The notes below the pieces were generated by a model. That model ran no database searches. It was not told the origin of the DNA and saw nothing but the letters and a program-made list of their open reading frames with translations. Source: an uncultured Oscillospiraceae bacterium (GTDB taxonomy: Bacteria; Bacillota; Clostridia; Oscillospirales; Acutalibacteraceae). From it: a stretch of 64,000 nucleotides of DNA. The stretch lies in assembly GCA_949297075.1 (NCBI GenBank), contig CASFRX010000024.1, positions 7,651-71,650 of the forward strand, in the 5' to 3' direction. The translations under genes were made by a program, and so were the position numbers. Below, one piece after another: positions 51,374 to 57,824 of the stretch (positions are counted from its first letter, which is position 1; each line of letters begins with the position of its first letter).

Positions 51374-53008
51374 TCATTGCTCCACCTCCGCTTCCACTTC
51401 GAGCCCACCGATGAAAACCACCTTGATTTTATCCTTGGATTCGACGATCACACATTGCAGGATTTTTCGGATGATTTCATTATCAAAGGTCAGCGGGTGA
51501 TTTTTCATGCCATCAAGGGTGGTAAAAATCTGCTCCAACCGTGACTTAGTGCTTTTGCGATGCTGTTCGGCGGCAATGTATTCTGCCAGCCTGTTTTCAA
51601 GCATTCTCTTTTCGCTCATCAGCGCTTTGATACGGGGATCGGTGAGCAGGCTTTCGGGATTTTCGGCAGTTACGGTGTTTAGGATATCATTGAATTCCTT
51701 ATCGATTTGTGCAATGCGGATTTGAATATCAACGCTTTCGTCCTCACCGGCTTCAGCGCCAAGCCCTATTTGGATATGCATTTTCAATGTTTGCAGAATG
51801 TCGGGATTGCTTTTTGCTGTTTTTAATATGGCATTCATAATCGCTTTTTGCAAGGGGGATTCTTCTATGGTCGGTGAGTGGTGACAGTATTTTTTGCCGT
51901 AGTCAAGGCGGTTGATACAGCGCCATACAATTCTCTTTTGACCACCTGCCGTCCAAGTGCACCGGCGGTATGGCGTTCCGCATTCTCCGCAGACAAGCAG
52001 TTCGGTGAGTGCGTACTTTCCGCAGTATTTGCCTTGCTCGGTTGTCGTGCCGATCTGCTTGACCTTGCGTTTCGAAGCTCGCCTTGCCAGTTCCTCCTGT
52101 ACCTGTGCGAAGGTGTCGGCATCGATGATTGCCGGATGATTGTTCTCTACATAATACTGCGGTCGTTCGCCGCCGTTGATACGCACCTTTTTGCTGATAC
52201 AGTCCTCGACATAGGTTTTGCCCAGCAGAGCGTCACCCTTGTATTTTACATTGGAGAGGATAGATTGTATCACTCCGGGCTGCCATACGGCTTTTCCCAT
52301 CGGCGTGGGAACACTGTCTGCGGTCAGTCCATCGGCAATCTGTTGCAGGCTGCTGCCGGAGAGAAATTCCGTATAGATTCGCCGTACCGTCATCGCCTGT
52401 GCAGGATCAATTTCCGGTTTTCCGTCTGCACCCTGACGGTATCCGAGGAAGGATTTATAAGCGAAGGACACATTGCCTTCCTTTGCGCTTTGCGCCTTGC
52501 CCCATGTCACATTGTGGCTGATGTTTTCGGATTCGCTCTGTGCGATAGAGCCATATATGGAGATATAAAACTCAGAGGCAGGATCGATGCTGTGCAAATT
52601 TTGTTCTTCAAAGTACACATCCACCTTGATTTCACGCAGCATTCGGGTGATCTTGATGCAGTCGAGGGTGTTTCGGGCAAATCGGCTGATGGATTTGACG
52701 ATAATCATATCTACCCGGCCTCGTTTGCATTGGCGTATTAGCTTGTTAAATTCATCGCGCTTTTTCATACTGGTGCCGGTGATACCCTTGTCAGCGTAAA
52801 TGCCTACCAACTTCCAGCCGGGTTCTCTGTGAATCCGTTCTGTGTAGTGGTTCACCTGATTTTCATAACTGTTAAGCTGTTCGTCCTGCTTGGTGGACAC
52901 TCGGCAGTAAGCGGCTACCCGTTTGGTAATGCTTTGTGTGCTGTGCGCATTCACCGGCTGTATAGTCGGAGTGATGGTGTGCACCCGTTTCTGTAATATT
53001 GCTTCCAT
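51374..53008 (-). CDS. large serine recombinase (full length)
   Basis: Catalytic AAYCRVSTKQDEQ motif, resolvase domain, recombinase domain, Cys4 zinc ribbon and coiled coil. Start at MEAILQ, after AGGAGA. Confidence 0.9.
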   Translation of the reverse strand: MEAILQKRVHTITPTIQPVNAHSTQSITKRVAAYCRVSTKQDEQLNSYENQVNHYTERIHREPGWKLVGIYADKGITGTSMKKRDEFNKLIRQCKRGRVDMIIVKSISRFARNTLDCIKITRMLREIKVDVYFEEQNLHSIDPASEFYISIYGSIAQSESENISHNVTWGKAQSAKEGNVSFAYKSFLGYRQGADGKPEIDPAQAMTVRRIYTEFLSGSSLQQIADGLTADSVPTPMGKAVWQPGVIQSILSNVKYKGDALLGKTYVEDCISKKVRINGGERPQYYVENNHPAIIDADTFAQVQEELARRASKRKVKQIGTTTEQGKYCGKYALTELLVCGECGTPYRRCTWTAGGQKRIVWRCINRLDYGKKYCHHSPTIEESPLQKAIMNAILKTAKSNPDILQTLKMHIQIGLGAEAGEDESVDIQIRIAQIDKEFNDILNTVTAENPESLLTDPRIKALMSEKRMLENRLAEYIAAEQHRKSTKSRLEQIFTTLDGMKNHPLTFDNEIIRKILQCVIVESKDKIKVVFIGGLEVEAEVEQ

Positions 53009-53858
53009 CGGTTCTCTCCTTTCTGATCTGCTGACCGTTTTTGAGGGTAAGGCTGACCGTTTTGTCAGCATGGAGTGTAATGACAGCGGCTATTTTCGCT
53101 GTTAGTTCTCCGTTATAGCAAGAGAGCGACCTTGTTCTTTGCAAGGTCGCTCTTATCCTCTCAGTCATATGCCCGACGGCATCAAAGGTTTCATACAGCA
53201 GTGAAGCGTATTCAAATATTCTGTTTTTCAGCGGCTCCTTCTCAATGACAAGGCTGTCAAGCATCTGCCCAATTTCATTCTTTAATCGGATGACCTCCAC
53301 AGGCGGTTCATCCGGTATCGGCTCGCTTTGCAGGATGCTCGGCTTGGCAAGGAGAAAGTTGATGCATTCGGTGATTGCCGAGAGAAAGTCATTATCTGAA
53401 ATCTTGATCACTGCGCCGCAGCCTTTGCATACCCACTTTTCTCCGAAAGTGGTGCGGCCATCATGTTTGCGCTGCATTGGCTCACCGCATTTCTCACAGA
53501 GAACCGGAAGCTGCAGCTTGAAAATATCTGCTGTACGGTCGAGGGATTTCTGTGTGTTTCGGGAGACTCTGACTGCCTGTGCTTTGTCATATATGCTTTG
53601 CTTGATGATAGGCGGATAGCTGTCGCTGCCGATGTAGCGTTTATCCTCAATAATGCGTTTCAGACGAGCTTTGTTCCATCCTGCCACTTCGGGCAGATAT
53701 TCCACTTGTCGTTCATTAAGCCTTTGTGCGATCTTCAATAGGGATTGCCCGTCCAAATAATCGGAAAATATATCTTGAACCGCTTGGCTTTCGGTTGGGT
53801 GAAAGATGATTTTGCCGTTCTCCATTGTATAGCCGAAGGGAATGTTTCGTGTTTTCAT
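52872..53858 (-). CDS. serine-recombinase paralogue lacking the catalytic resolvase domain (recombinase domain, zinc ribbon and coiled coil only)
   Basis: Starts directly at the recombinase-domain motif (IPFGY...). No Y-x-R-V-S-T motif. CEKCG...CKGCG zinc ribbon. Its 3' end overlaps the next recombinase gene out of frame by 137 nt. Confidence 0.75.
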   Translation of the reverse strand: MKTRNIPFGYTMENGKIIFHPTESQAVQDIFSDYLDGQSLLKIAQRLNERQVEYLPEVAGWNKARLKRIIEDKRYIGSDSYPPIIKQSIYDKAQAVRVSRNTQKSLDRTADIFKLQLPVLCEKCGEPMQRKHDGRTTFGEKWVCKGCGAVIKISDNDFLSAITECINFLLAKPSILQSEPIPDEPPVEVIRLKNEIGQMLDSLVIEKEPLKNRIFEYASLLYETFDAVGHMTERIRATLQRTRSLSCYNGELTAKIAAVITLHADKTVSLTLKNGQQIRKERTDGSNITETGAHHHSDYTAGECAQHTKHYQTGSRLLPSVHQAGRTA

Positions 53859-53859
53859 A

Positions 53860-55410
53860 TCATGCGCTCCTTTCCTCGAATTTCTCGGTGAGCGTCAGTC
53901 CACCGGCGAGGCGGAAACGCAGCGTGTTCCTGCCGATTACGGTAATACTCTCCACGATTTGTCCGAACAAGTCCGCATCAAAGCTGTCTGTTGAAACGTA
54001 TTCGGCAATGGTTTCGTTTAATTCTTTCAGAGATTCGATGATTTCGTCATCCTCATCCTCTGTCAAGATGCGGCGGCGCTCTGACCGGAGTTCACTGACC
54101 TTCCGGTCAAGCTCGCCTGATCTGGAGGCATACTCGGCATGATTGAGAATGCCGTTTTTGTAAAGCTGGGCAACCACAAGGCTCTGCGCATTGACATCAG
54201 CGATTTGGCGATTGAGCTGATACACCTGTTCGCCGCTGCCGCTGGTTCGGCTCTGCAGCTTTTCAAGCTGCCTGATTAAATCGCCCAGCAGTTCTTCTCG
54301 GTTTTGCGCGAGCTTATCGCTCATCCGTATGAATGCGGACATCACGGCATCCTCCCGGACTCGGTCACCGGCGCACTCTGTTCTGCCTGCCGCTTTGTAT
54401 GAGCAGAGCCAATATGCTGTTCCGTTCACTACCTGCCTGCGGTAATTGTGACCGCAGACCGGACATTTCAGCATACCGCTGAATGGGTAACGGTTTTTCG
54501 GGACATGATTGCCTTTCGATTTGCTTTTTTGCAGTTCCTGCACTGCTTGGTAGGTTTCTCTGCTGACGATGGCGGGATTGCTGTTTTCCACATAATACTG
54601 TGCCTTTTCGCCTCGGTTTCTCTTTTTGGTAAAGGGCAGGCTTTCGGTGGTGTAACTCTTTTGGAGCAGGCAGTCACCCATATACCTCTCGTTATTGAGA
54701 ATATAGTCAATGGTGAAGAGATGCCATGTTTTCTGACCGTACCGTTTCGGCACTCCGTCCGCATTGAGCTGATTGGCAATGGCTTGCTTGCCGCAGCCCT
54801 GCAGGTAGAGATGAAAAATCCGGCGCACAACCTGCGCCTCCGCTTCATTGATTTGAAGCTCGCCGTCTATGAGGTCGTACCCATAGGCGGCTCGGCAGCA
54901 GTTGAAATCGCCGGATTTCATTCTTTTTTGATAGCTCCACCGCATATTCTCGGATATAGTTTCCGATTCCCGCTGTGCAGCGATGCCGGGGAATGTCATC
55001 ATCAGTTCGAGGTCAACCGTTTCCGTGTCGATGCCTTGCTCTTCAAAATAGATGCTGACGCCCATTTCCTTTAACGCTCTTGTTGCCGCTAAAAATTCGG
55101 CGGTATTTCGGGCGAATCGGGAGACGCTTTTTGTAATAATGCGGTCAATTTTTCCTTTCTTACAGTCCCGAATCAAGCGGTTGAAATCATCCCGCTTGTC
55201 CATGCGTGTGCCGGTGATGCCCTCATCGGCATAAATGTCCACCAGCTCGTATTCAGGATGTTCTGCAACATATTCTGTATAATGCTTGACCTGCGCTGCG
55301 AAAGAGTGAAGCTGATCTTCGGAATTGCTGGATACCCGTGTGTAGGGGGCTAACCGCAGGATTCGCTGTTCCTGTTTTCCGGCTGTCAGCTCGGTAATTG
55401 TTTTTCCCAT
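53860..55410 (-). CDS. large serine recombinase (full length)
   Basis: PYTRVSSNSEDQ catalytic motif, recombinase domain, CPVCG...C zinc ribbon. AAGGAGA RBS. Confidence 0.9.
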   Translation of the reverse strand: MGKTITELTAGKQEQRILRLAPYTRVSSNSEDQLHSFAAQVKHYTEYVAEHPEYELVDIYADEGITGTRMDKRDDFNRLIRDCKKGKIDRIITKSVSRFARNTAEFLAATRALKEMGVSIYFEEQGIDTETVDLELMMTFPGIAAQRESETISENMRWSYQKRMKSGDFNCCRAAYGYDLIDGELQINEAEAQVVRRIFHLYLQGCGKQAIANQLNADGVPKRYGQKTWHLFTIDYILNNERYMGDCLLQKSYTTESLPFTKKRNRGEKAQYYVENSNPAIVSRETYQAVQELQKSKSKGNHVPKNRYPFSGMLKCPVCGHNYRRQVVNGTAYWLCSYKAAGRTECAGDRVREDAVMSAFIRMSDKLAQNREELLGDLIRQLEKLQSRTSGSGEQVYQLNRQIADVNAQSLVVAQLYKNGILNHAEYASRSGELDRKVSELRSERRRILTEDEDDEIIESLKELNETIAEYVSTDSFDADLFGQIVESITVIGRNTLRFRLAGGLTLTEKFEERSA

Positions 55411-55517: not shown

Positions 55518-55673
55518 TTAAAGGAAAAGACATAACTTTTTTTGCGGATCGTAATGTTCCGCCTGCAACTGTAAAATGCTTCTGTATTCTGATTCGCTGA
55601 TCAGCCGCATGGACAGCAGAAGGCGGAGCATATTCACTCCATAGGCAAGGGCGATGCCGTTTTTATCATTCAT
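55518..55673 (-). CDS. 51-aa protein translationally coupled to mazF (MNDKNGIALAYGVNMLRLLLSMRLISESEYRSILQLQAEHYDPQKKLCLFL)
   Basis: Translated by hand. Its ATG lies inside the last codons of mazF (..CAGGAGGCGCGCCATGAATGA), and that GGAGG can serve as its RBS. Not in the ORF track. Confidence 0.5.
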   Translation of the reverse strand: MNDKNGIALAYGVNMLRLLLSMRLISESEYRSILQLQAEHYDPQKKLCLFL

Positions 55674-56028
55674 GGCGCGCCTCCTGTTTCATGCCGAGGC
55701 TGACGCTCATGGCGGATTCTATCCGATGCATATCCTCTGCGGAAATCTGTCCGAGCCGGTCGGACAGACGCTTTTTGTCAATGGTGCGAAGCTGTTCCAG
55801 TAGGACAACCGATTCGCTCTCCAAAAAATCGTAGTCAATAAAGATATGGGTAGGCTGCGATCTTTTCTTCGGCACGGAAGTGATGGGAGCAACAATGGTT
55901 GTAGAACTGAATTTATTGCCGGTGTCGTTTTGAAGAATGAGAACCGGACGGATGCCGCCCTGCTCGCTGCCGACAACGGGGGATAAATCGGCGTAATAAA
56001 TTTCGCCGCGCTTGATTGTATTGGTCAT
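55666..56028 (-). CDS. mazF: MazF/PemK-family endoribonuclease toxin (EndoA-like)
   Basis: KRGEIYYADLSPVVGSEQGGIRPVLILQND...LLEQLRTIDKKRL is near-collinear with B. subtilis EndoA/NdoA. GGAGG sits 8 nt upstream of the ATG. Confidence 0.9.
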   Translation of the reverse strand: MTNTIKRGEIYYADLSPVVGSEQGGIRPVLILQNDTGNKFSSTTIVAPITSVPKKRSQPTHIFIDYDFLESESVVLLEQLRTIDKKRLSDRLGQISAEDMHRIESAMSVSLGMKQEARHE

Positions 56029-56055
56029 GGTCGATACCTCCGTATTGTTAAGTAA

Positions 56056-56110
56056 AAGCCCAAGGGCATGGATAAGCGCAAAAAGGGGGGGATACCTTGC
56101 CCTTGGGCTT
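56056..56110 (-). terminator. terminator-like hairpin 14 nt upstream of the mazF Shine-Dalgarno
   Basis: 13-bp perfect stem AAGCCCAAGGGCA / TGCCCTTGGGCTT (16 bp with one mismatch). On the minus strand only a short U-tract follows (CTTTTAC). Confidence 0.5.
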
Positions 56111-56451
56111 ATTCAATCGTTTTGCGTATTGACCATATTTGTCCTCGCACCCGTGGTCAGACGGCAGACTTGCAAACAATCGACAGCGAATCGATTCCCC
56201 AGGAATTTCACCTCCGCGTGGTTCTCACCCGGCCGCCCTCTTTGGTTGCGACGGCTCACGACACATACTGTGCCGCTTCAACGCTCGACTTTTGACTGGA
56301 CGGGGTGTTGTCTTTCCGCAGCCTGTCATGGCGTAATTCATGCGGTGCTGCCGCACTATCTGTTCCAAAAGGAACAGGCCGCTTGCCCCTTTCGAGGACA
56401 GCAGGCGGAAAGTATTTGCAGTTGGATTATGAAGTTTTCAAGGAACGCGGA
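56111..56451 (-). ncRNA. candidate structured non-coding RNA or long regulatory leader (class unknown)
   Basis: No minus-strand ORF of 60 or more codons. Bracketed by two hairpin terminators. GC-rich, with multiple local hairpins and an 8-nt long-range complement (56140-56147 with 56393-56400). Confidence 0.35.
56113..56126 (-). repeat. 14-nt copy (minus-strand RNA: CGCAAAACGAUUGA) complementary to the anti-SD arm of the sigma-gene leader hairpin
   Basis: Plus-strand TCAATCGTTTTGCG at 56113-56126. Its reverse complement CGCAAAACGATTGA occurs on the plus strand at 57066-57079. Confidence 0.6.
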
Positions 56452-56497
56452 GGCAAACAAAAATGCCCCTCACTTTCCATGGCGAAAAGCGAGGGGT
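56452..56497 (-). terminator. rho-independent terminator of the sigma-like gene
   Basis: On the minus strand, CCCCTCGCTTTTC pairs with GGAAAGTGAGGGG and is followed by CATTTTTGTTTG. Confidence 0.7.
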
Positions 56498-56514
56498 TTG
56501 CACACCTTGAATTT

Positions 56515-57033
56515 TTAACTCTCTAAAAGTTTTTTGAGCTTTTCAAGAATGCGCATTTTCTTTTTGTGCACTGCATTATGGTAAATCCCTTTTTTTGCAG
56601 CATATTCCCGTTCGGTCAATCCTTCATAAAACAGCTTGCGGATCAGCTCCTGCTCATCCTCCGACAGCAGAGAAAGCATGGCAACGAGCTTGTCCGTCAT
56701 TATCTTGCGGATGACCTGCTCATCCACAGGCTCGGCGGTGTCGATCAGAATGTCCGCACCATTAAAATCATCTGTGGTCAGCATATCGATGGAGATATCT
56801 CCGTTTTCTGCCGACCGTCTGTCCAGATACCGTTGTCTGTTCTTAGTGCGGTAAAAATCGGCATATTGCTCCGGCGTCACCTCCATCAGCATTCCATGTA
56901 GCGGAACAAATTTTTTCTTCTGATAACGGATGTCTGTGCCTTTTCTATAGCATAGTTCCGAATAAGTGATTTCCTCATAGCCATCCTTTGAAAATACAAA
57001 GCATTTGGATTTGGCATATTTATCGTCTGCCAT
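56515..57033 (-). CDS. sigma-70 region-4-type protein (MGE-associated sigma factor-like regulator, Tn916 Orf7-like class)
   Basis: C-terminal region-4 HTH (LSEDEQELIRKLFYEGLTEREYAAKKGIYHNAVHKKKMRILEKLKK). Start at MADDKY, after GGAGG. Confidence 0.75.
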   Translation of the reverse strand: MADDKYAKSKCFVFSKDGYEEITYSELCYRKGTDIRYQKKKFVPLHGMLMEVTPEQYADFYRTKNRQRYLDRRSAENGDISIDMLTTDDFNGADILIDTAEPVDEQVIRKIMTDKLVAMLSLLSEDEQELIRKLFYEGLTEREYAAKKGIYHNAVHKKKMRILEKLKKLLES

Positions 57034-57500: not shown

Positions 57501-57824
57501 ATGAAGAATCCGCTGGATTTATTTGCTGCCGATCTCCGTGCCGCAAGAATCAGGCGGAATCTGACACAGAGGCAGTTGGCAGAAATGCTGCACATGAGTG
57601 TGCGAACAATTATTGAACTGGAACGGTGCAAAAGCAGCCCGCGCTTTGAAACGGTGGCAACGCTTGCAAAAGAGCTGGACATCAGTTTGGATGCTGTTGT
57701 ATTCCAAGACAGCAAAACTGACAGAGTTTCAAAGAGCATAGTCGATTTCTTTTCTGACAAAAGCGAGGAAGAAATTCAAAAATACATCGCGCTTTGTGAG
57801 CAAGCGGATACACTGAAAGGTTAA
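57501..57824 (+). CDS. XRE-family helix-turn-helix transcriptional regulator
   Basis: HTH_3 motif (LRAARIRRNLTQRQLAEMLHMSVRTIIELERCKSSP). GAGGTGAGGTG RBS. Confidence 0.85.
   Translation: MKNPLDLFAADLRAARIRRNLTQRQLAEMLHMSVRTIIELERCKSSPRFETVATLAKELDISLDAVVFQDSKTDRVSKSIVDFFSDKSEEEIQKYIALCEQADTLKG

Follow-up and report, generated by a model that had tools for sequence, protein, structure and literature searches.

What occupies the 486-nt gap between a sigma-like gene and a mazF toxin gene in the DNA of an uncultured Oscillospiraceae bacterium, and how might it act on the genes behind it? The window is the whole 64,000-nt stretch of contig CASFRX010000024.1 that was analyzed; every gene around the gap is encoded on its minus strand, that is, the sense direction runs from higher to lower coordinates. 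A reading made from the letters of the DNA (the sequence-only reading) had proposed either a stand-alone structured RNA or a long leader that gates a mazF-recombinase operon. The genes that frame the gap are:

57048-56515, minus strand: sigma-70/ECF-like gene, 177 aa, the 5′ neighbor of the leader
56037-56041, minus strand: mazF Shine-Dalgarno GGAGG, read from the sequence
55666-56028, minus strand: mazF/pemK toxin gene, 120 aa, EndoA type (Pfam PF02452 PemK_toxin, E = 7e-34)
55518-55673, minus strand: SHOCT_2 ORF, 51 aa (Pfam, 24.9 bits), overlapping the mazF stop codon
51374-55410, minus strand: three large-serine-recombinase ORFs in tandem, carried behind the leader as cargo

The sigma-like gene gives a weak match to Pfam Sigma70_r4_2 and scores 40.7 bits against the NCBIfam sigma70-ECF model TIGR02937, slightly below the cut-off of 42.9; a sigma-like gene is found in the equivalent position in a relative (L002, see below). 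Among solved structures, B. anthracis PemK and B. subtilis EndoA come nearest to the MazF of the window (E ~1e-35); the alignment is nearly end to end, with ~55-60% identity by count, and the SEQGG(I/V)RPVL segment is aligned and conserved. Of the recombinase ORFs, one (53860-55410) matches Pfam Resolvase, Recombinase, and Zn_ribbon_recom, and the remaining two have CcrA/CcrB/XisF-like matches in NCBIfam.

No MazE/PemI-type antitoxin ORF adjoins mazF on either side, in the window or in its relatives (ORF and Pfam check); the sequence-only reading was correct in calling the toxin an orphan. The small ORF that follows mazF was considered as a downstream antitoxin and rejected because its family differs between clades: the SHOCT_2 ORF is kept only in the clade of the window, and HTH_17 or Tn916-Xis excisionases are found there in the other clades. 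The locus shares with the type II mazEF (ndoAI-ndoA, EndoA) systems of the Bacillota a close EndoA/PemK homologue and the expected cut-site hexamer (see below); it differs in having no MazE/EndoAI gene and in that mazF belongs to the recombination operon of a mobile element and is preceded by a long structured leader.

The sequence-only reading recognized no known family in the gap. A scan against Rfam 15 overturns this, with a match above the gathering score:

56254-56201, minus strand: match to Rfam RF02913 (pemK RNA, Cis-reg), 40.0 bits versus a gathering score of 34.8

This match (E = 4.6e-5 over 3 kb; 9.8e-4 over 64 kb) is the sole gathering-level Rfam match within the 64-kb window and lies 173 nt upstream of the mazF start on the same strand; RF02913 also matches in the relatives L001, L002, and L003. 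The segment is a leader RNA whose conserved core belongs to the known pemK RNA family. As this family is already catalogued, the finding as such is not novel; routine annotation with Infernal and Rfam gives the core the name pemK RNA. The motif comes from a set of 224 candidate RNAs (Weinberg et al. 2017, NAR 45:10811), and Rfam 15 includes RF02913 among the families with structures that gained covarying pairs. The family is still an orphan: our literature search found no experimental or functional study of it, and no function is assigned to it in the literature searched. The family description reportedly mentions linked pemK genes that have no antitoxin gene and raises the idea that the RNA is the substitute. 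The RNA in the window differs from the family in nothing essential; it has the three core hairpins and conserved loops in common with it and, likewise, is located upstream of an antitoxin-less pemK/mazF gene in Clostridia.

The comparison set (124 motif loci) contains at least 120 metagenomic loci, collected by scanning metagenome contigs with a degenerate DNA pattern built on the core, and three genomic or plasmid relatives. Using MazF as the query against one genome per species, two close RNA-bearing loci were identified, L002 (82% MazF identity) and L003 (77%); BLAST of the segment against plasmids gave one partial hit, and L001 is the plasmid locus. BLAST against phages also gave one partial hit, confined to the terminator region, and nothing was found when viral contigs were scanned with the core pattern.

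Does the gap encode a protein? The longest minus-strand ORFs in 56029-56514 have 48, 47, 43, and 34 aa; the 38-codon ATG-initiated ORF described previously is real and sits inside the 47-aa ORF, which has a TTG start at 56368. Were the gap a protein-coding gene in decay (a degraded mazE, for instance), the coding-strand ORFs of 43-48 aa that overlap the region could be its remnants. However, none of the sense ORFs in the gap has a Pfam match (nor does its 168-aa plus-strand ORF), all three sense frames of the conserved RNA contain stops in 50/54 representatives (among the loci listed), and no ORF upstream of mazF is conserved across the representatives. In addition, the variability per codon position (0.26 / 0.24 / 0.24) has no 3-nt periodicity, the indels are located in helices, and the substitutions are compensatory. 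We give the decayed gene almost no credence: the check for an intact conserved ORF and codon periodicity that had been proposed with the sequence-only reading found neither, the comparisons support a conserved structured RNA, and the leader RNA is, as judged from the aligned sequences, non-coding.

The minimum free energy of a 506-nt stretch that includes the gap has z = −3.66, and 0/100 shuffles fold as well. Using 54 representatives with less than 90% pairwise identity (among the loci listed), conservation extends from ~56331 to ~56130, that is, over ~200 nt and not over 54. The core and its helices are:

56130-56333, minus strand: family-wide conserved core of the pemK RNA, ~200 nt (conservation, RNAalifold consensus, covariation)
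56303-56293 with 56241-56233, minus strand: helix P1 (covariation)
56290-56282 with 56253-56244, minus strand: helix P1a (covariation)
56232-56226 with 56220-56214, minus strand: helix P2 (covariation)
56213-56211 with 56203-56201, minus strand: helix P3 (kept, nearly invariant)
56196-56191 with 56183-56178, minus strand: helix P4 (covariation)
56160-56155 with 56135-56130, minus strand: helix P5 (covariation)

We tested an eight-helix structure on 41 long-form sequences (among the loci listed). In these, 89.9% of the cells are paired, compared with 35-49% when the partners are slid, and both-sided (compensatory) changes occur in 30/46 pairs; the covariation score is 0.419 versus 0.17 for shuffles, with 0/500 shuffles reaching 0.419. 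Covariation so far above the shuffled and slid controls makes it very unlikely that the hairpins arose by chance. Helices P1, P1a, P2, P4, and P5 are well supported (e.g., P1 is 96% paired; P2 is 94% paired with compensatory changes in 6/7 pairs); P3 is 100% paired, with one of its three pairs covarying. The loops GAGAAC (second core hairpin) and UGAAAUU (third) are near-invariant. A candidate pseudoknot in the 3′ domain (UUCCC/GGGG) is 82% paired with almost no informative variation, and a candidate 3-bp closing helix is uninformative in the covariation test.

The covariation also locates the 5′ strand of hairpin 1. In the window, the Rfam local alignment pairs GGGCGG with a nearer CCGU as this strand; the true 5′ strand is 56303-56298, as identified by covariation (CCGUUC/GAGCGG, CCGCUA/UAGCGG, CCGUAC/GUGCGG), and in L001 the RF02913 model aligns hairpin 1 with a 55-nt insertion. 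All of the elements listed in the sequence-only reading are present where it placed them, and their fates in the alignment differ. The AATCGA-N7-TCGATT hairpin (56196-56178) has compensatory changes in relatives. The 8-nt long-range complement (56400-56393 with 56147-56140) is present in the window; relatives (e.g., L110 and L196) do not conserve it, and we estimate that approximately two such 8-mer complements would arise by chance in a sequence of 486 nt. Next to it, the pairing of CACCCCGT with ACGGGTG is also present but competes with the covariation-supported helix P1.

Upstream of the core, the 5′ end of the leader is marked by the following:

56452-56497, minus strand: intrinsic terminator of the sigma-like gene (14-pair stem 56496-56466, then CATTTTTGTT)
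56413-56441, minus strand: candidate promoter (−35-like TTGAAA at 56441-56436 and weak −10-like CAAATA at 56418-56413)
56381-56402, minus strand: 5′ hairpin A (containing CCTC-GAAA-GGGG), 98.9% of cells paired, 4/8 pairs compensatory
56360-56377, minus strand: 5′ hairpin B (CTGTTCC-TTTT-GGAACAG), 91.7% paired, 4/6 pairs compensatory
56338-56358, minus strand: 5′ hairpin C (GTGCGG-CAGCA-CCGCA), 92.7% paired, 4/8 pairs compensatory

The terminator that had been proposed for the sigma-like gene is real (stem and T-run). The TTGAAA/CAAATA element is a putative promoter with a poor −10: 11/12 sequences of the subfamily have kept a TTGA[AC]AA box together with its spacing, and a sigma-70 scan did not call the candidate. 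In the subfamily of the window (12 sequences), hairpins A-C together are 94.6% paired with compensatory changes in 12/22 pairs; hairpins A and B had been described previously and are likewise borne out by compensatory changes in the relatives. Other subfamilies have different 5′ extensions.

A further hairpin separates the core from mazF:

56110-56056, minus strand: 13-bp hairpin AAGCCCAAGGGCA / TGCCCTTGGGCTT, from sequence and fold, followed by UUUU

It ends 14 nt before GGAGG (56041-56037) and has compensatory changes in L002, L003, L110, and L103; most of the MazF-linked clades examined have an equivalent long GC-rich hairpin after the core, usually with no U-tract behind it. With its 29-nt loop, the hairpin of the window exceeds the 3-8 nt limit of the terminator scan and so went unreported there. 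The sequence-only reading had described this hairpin, together with that of the sigma-like gene, as terminator-like. The 13-bp stem is real; the U-tract is found only in the clade of the window, so the long hairpin does not, in general, appear to be an intrinsic terminator.

As delimited by these comparisons, the predicted leader is ~370 nt, from ~56405 to the mazF start codon, and its fold consists of three 5′ hairpins, the ~200-nt core with six helices, and the long 3′ hairpin. The Rfam model has 61 positions, compared with ~200 nt for the conserved RNA and ~370 nt for the leader. Beyond the model are a large domain inserted in the loop of hairpin 1, helices P4 and P5, and the three 5′ hairpins; these parts are additional relative to the Rfam model, and the original 2017 drawing may already show some of them.

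Which genes does the RNA precede? Among the matches listed, a MazF homologue (40-100% identical) is encoded downstream on the same strand in 72/124 loci, and MazF is the first gene behind the RNA in 72/124; its start is 98-236 nt 3′ of the motif in 70/72 of these, and in the remaining two an extra ORF lies between motif and MazF. The distance in these matches is most often ~216 nt and is ~160-174 nt in the clade of the window. The other 52/124 loci listed have no MazF match, including 38 with at least 500 nt of downstream sequence; the next genes in the MazF-less loci listed encode HTH_17 or Tn916-Xis excisionases, SHOCT_2 proteins, large serine recombinases, tyrosine integrases, or ParA, and two of these loci encode a protein that is ParB-like by eye with no Pfam match. 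In the MazF-linked loci, the gene after mazF also encodes an excisionase or a SHOCT_2 protein. Among the matches listed, the RNA is always on the sense strand upstream of mobile-element excision, integration, or partition genes. As judged from gene order, loci with an excisionase, integrase, or ParA and no MazF identify the RNA as the head of a module for excision, integration, or partition in the mobile elements of Clostridia, and MazF as a frequent but optional first gene of this module. The long leader proposed in front of the mazF-recombinase operon is confirmed in its position and strand.

A location on mobile elements and a strand-specific structure would also be expected of a single-stranded DNA element of a conjugative element, such as a single-strand origin or an oriT-like fold, instead of an RNA. 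However, the orientation and the spacing to the ribosome-binding site and start codon are fixed, many of the conserved pairs are G-U (e.g., the P1 U-G pair in 36/41 sequences) that would be C-A mismatches on the other strand, and the Rfam class is cis-regulatory RNA; we regard the DNA element as highly improbable.

Another explanation is a riboswitch-like or protein-binding attenuator, that is, a signal unrelated to MazF gates the excision-integration module, with MazF as a passenger in first position. The conservation of the core in loci with and without MazF is consistent with this, as is the aptamer-like appearance of a multi-helix junction with near-invariant loops and junction residues; the window also allows an alternative pairing, of the 3′ strand of P5 (UGGUCA) with the mazF start region (GUAUCGACCAUG). 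However, as we read the alignment, only about half of the close relatives retain it, a conserved terminator/antiterminator pair was not found, and the gene context suggests no ligand. Occlusion of the start site is only marginally above the shuffled control: the predicted openness of the start site is 0.38 with the native and 0.47 with shuffled upstream sequence, native being lower in 13/21 representatives, and with an effect this small it is doubtful that the leader hides the ribosome-binding site. We consider the attenuator unlikely, although it deserves to be kept in mind.

The gene order also resembles that of Tn916-type conjugative transposons, whose excision genes are controlled through a leader RNA and in which a sigma-like and XRE-type regulatory pair is upstream and xis/int or recombinase genes are downstream; control by read-through of a structured leader may be a further similarity. 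In Tn916 itself, attenuation upstream of tetM relies on a leader peptide; in contrast, no conserved leader peptide is present here, and the RNA fold is unrelated.

In the MazF-linked leaders, a short motif lies between the long hairpin and the ribosome-binding site:

56054-56049, minus strand: UACUUA, predicted to be cut by MazF (U56054^A56053)

UACAUA or UACUUA is located directly after the long hairpin in 62/62 distinct MazF-linked leaders (among the matches listed), a count that overstates the number of independent events because the sequences are related. UACAUA is found in 53 and UACUUA in 9 of these distinct leaders, the clade of the window being among the 9; the bases that flank the hexamer vary between leaders. 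The hexamer occurs in ~9% of shuffled leaders, in 8/31 RNA-bearing loci without MazF (among the matches listed), and in 18/77 MazF loci without the RNA; 23 representative mazF ORFs contain one site in total, and none was found in the RNA cores. The 5,077-nt operon of the window (56450-51374) contains no such site other than 56054-56049. The predicted unpaired probability of this site is 0.84, and in 51/55 leaders the predicted openness of the hexamer exceeds the average for the leader.

EndoA-type MazF enzymes cut at U^ACAUA and U^ACNUA (bioRxiv 10.64898/2026.08.06.743204). The simplest reading is that the MazF proteins probably cut their own leaders at the hexamer; its fixed place in MazF-linked leaders is possibly a new detail. 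We considered two other roles for the hexamer. As the −10 of an internal promoter, the layout TTGCGC-N18-TTTTAC holds in the window, L196, and L002; this reading was dropped because the layout is absent in L003 and L103. As the end of a leader peptide (the stop in UACAUAG/UACUUAA), it was dropped because the base after the hexamer varies and the upstream frames are interrupted.

The specific form found in the clade of the window, UACUUA, was not cut by the B. subtilis and Listeria MazF enzymes and was cut weakly by that of S. aureus (bioRxiv 10.64898/2026.08.06.743204); a site that is refractory or a weak substrate for these enzymes speaks against self-cleavage in this clade.

The arrangement also recalls the type III toxin-antitoxin systems (ToxIN, CptIN, TenpIN), an analogy drawn in the sequence-only reading. 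In such a case the RNA, transcribed from its own promoter and ended or cut free after the long hairpin, would neutralize MazF in place of MazE. The two have several features in common: in both, an endoribonuclease toxin gene directly follows an RNA, from which a hairpin separates it (here in the order promoter-like box, RNA, hairpin, toxin gene), no protein antitoxin is encoded, and a toxin recognition site (predicted here) is located where cutting would release the RNA. ToxN processes ToxI, and a MazF site just 3′ of the hairpin would allow the toxin to release its RNA in the same manner. However, type III antitoxin RNAs are tandem direct repeats, and their toxins belong to the ToxN/CptN/TenpN (AbiQ-like) family. 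Tandem Repeats Finder detected nothing in 55900-56600 at a minimum score of 30; the RNA here has one complex fold instead of a repeat array, and its toxin is of the PemK/MazF family, so the analogy fails in both of these respects; that the RNA also occurs without the toxin weakens it further. No MazF hexamer is present in the core to serve as a pseudo-substrate, the long hairpin lacks a U-tract in most clades, and the 38 MazF-less loci with sufficient downstream sequence front excisionases, integrases, or ParA.

The missing MazE also has to be read against other Clostridia MazF homologues (L004-L081), which have no adjoining upstream gene and no pemK RNA (17 loci scanned with Rfam; 75 by core-motif search); because these lack both, a missing MazE does not by itself call for an RNA substitute. 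An RNA antitoxin of the type III kind is, in our judgment, doubtful.

Our preferred explanation, to which we assign a probability of roughly 0.6, is that the RNA is a cis-acting leader of a mobile-element operon (mazF, SHOCT, and three recombinases) that is probably cleaved by MazF. The RNA would, as we infer, regulate the downstream genes in cis. In the versions that carry MazF, the toxin would exert feedback on the mRNA that encodes it: the single UAC(A/U)UA, predicted to be unpaired, between the long hairpin and the ribosome-binding site would be cut by MazF, and the structured RNA would thereby be detached from the coding part. The cut might either limit toxin synthesis or process the operon mRNA; the predicted openness of the start region is 0.31 in the full leader and 0.54 after the cut. 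Self-cleavage could keep a MazE-less MazF in check. It cannot be the general function of the core because the core also occurs without MazF.

We hold as a less likely possibility that pemK RNA and MazF form a toxin module that has no protein antitoxin, in which MazF would cut its transcript at the invariant UAC(A/U)UA and set free a stable structured RNA that would either neutralize MazF or couple its activity to excision of the mobile element. If neutralization were true, the RNA would be a new, non-repeat RNA antitoxin for a toxin with the MazF fold.

The role of the pemK RNA is now more testable in three respects: the RNA can be approached as a ~370-nt leader and not as a 61-nt motif; its association is with the modules for excision, integration, and partition of mobile elements in Clostridia and not with MazF alone; and all MazF-linked leaders (among the matches listed) have, in one fixed position, the hexamer cut by EndoA-type MazF, which in this operon occurs nowhere else. 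The hexamer and the link to excision modules are concrete, testable leads. If MazF cuts the hexamer, the tolerance of MazF in the absence of MazE would be explained, and the activity of the toxin would be linked to the control of element excision in gut Clostridia.

Directly past the terminator of the sigma-like gene, a TTGA[AC]AA box (56436-56441 in the window) is conserved in the alignment covering the 5′ hairpins A-C of the window's subfamily (12 sequences); at the -10 position (56413-56418), the same alignment contains only CAAATA or CTTTTA. An ECF-like sigma factor is encoded by the gene adjoining this unusual candidate promoter (56413-56441) on its upstream side and might recognize it. 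The sigma-like gene also has a regulatory neighbor, and the two genes resemble the regulatory pair of Tn916-type elements:

57501-57824, plus strand: XRE/RstR-like repressor gene, oriented away from the sigma-like gene

In the window sequence, a short reading frame comes after a conserved stretch of the 3′ domain of the pemK RNA:

56113-56136, minus strand: conserved 3′-domain sequence GAGGACAAAU, then an AUG with a mini-ORF of 7 codons (MVNTQND)

Other clades do not conserve the start codon of this mini-ORF, so the GAGGA box of the 3′ domain probably serves the RNA fold, not translation.

In other subfamilies (loci L082, L092, L095, L161, L164, L165, L173, L176, L187, and L195), a 5′ extension unlike that of the window is located ~100-200 nt upstream of the core. 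This extension contains recurring boxes in the order GCCAUGAC, hairpin, GAGCGA(G/U)AAAC, TAAT-like box, hairpin, and GGCGAUGAC; therefore, the RNA may exceed 300 nt in some of the members that carry it. In short forms, the GAGCGA box is located upstream and not within the loop of P1 (the long-range helix of the core).

The genome loci L004-L081 encode MazFs that are 58-65% identical to that of the window. Their mazF genes are also orphans; an ORF of at least 45 aa ends beside the mazF start codon in just 7 of 75 loci. The Rfam scan gave no pemK RNA match in the 17 loci scanned, and 58 of the 75 lack all three of the sequence motifs that were searched. Many have in common a different conserved upstream region, AAAAGTCAA...AATAAAATATA, with a GGGCGG hairpin after it.

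Of the three recombinase ORFs downstream of mazF, the central one is possibly a copy that has been truncated or frameshifted:

52872-53858, minus strand: recombinase ORF, 328 aa, partial match to the CcrA model

Only CcrA model positions 150-272 are matched, the N-terminal catalytic resolvase domain is seemingly missing, and the ORF shares 200 nt with the recombinase ORF that follows it (51374-53071).

Two loci (L136 and L193) have an additional ORF between the RNA and mazF, with the hairpin + UAC(A/U)UA unit (the hexamer is the predicted MazF cut site) upstream of that ORF; L193 has a second copy upstream of mazF, an arrangement suggestive of mobile punctuation that separates genes.
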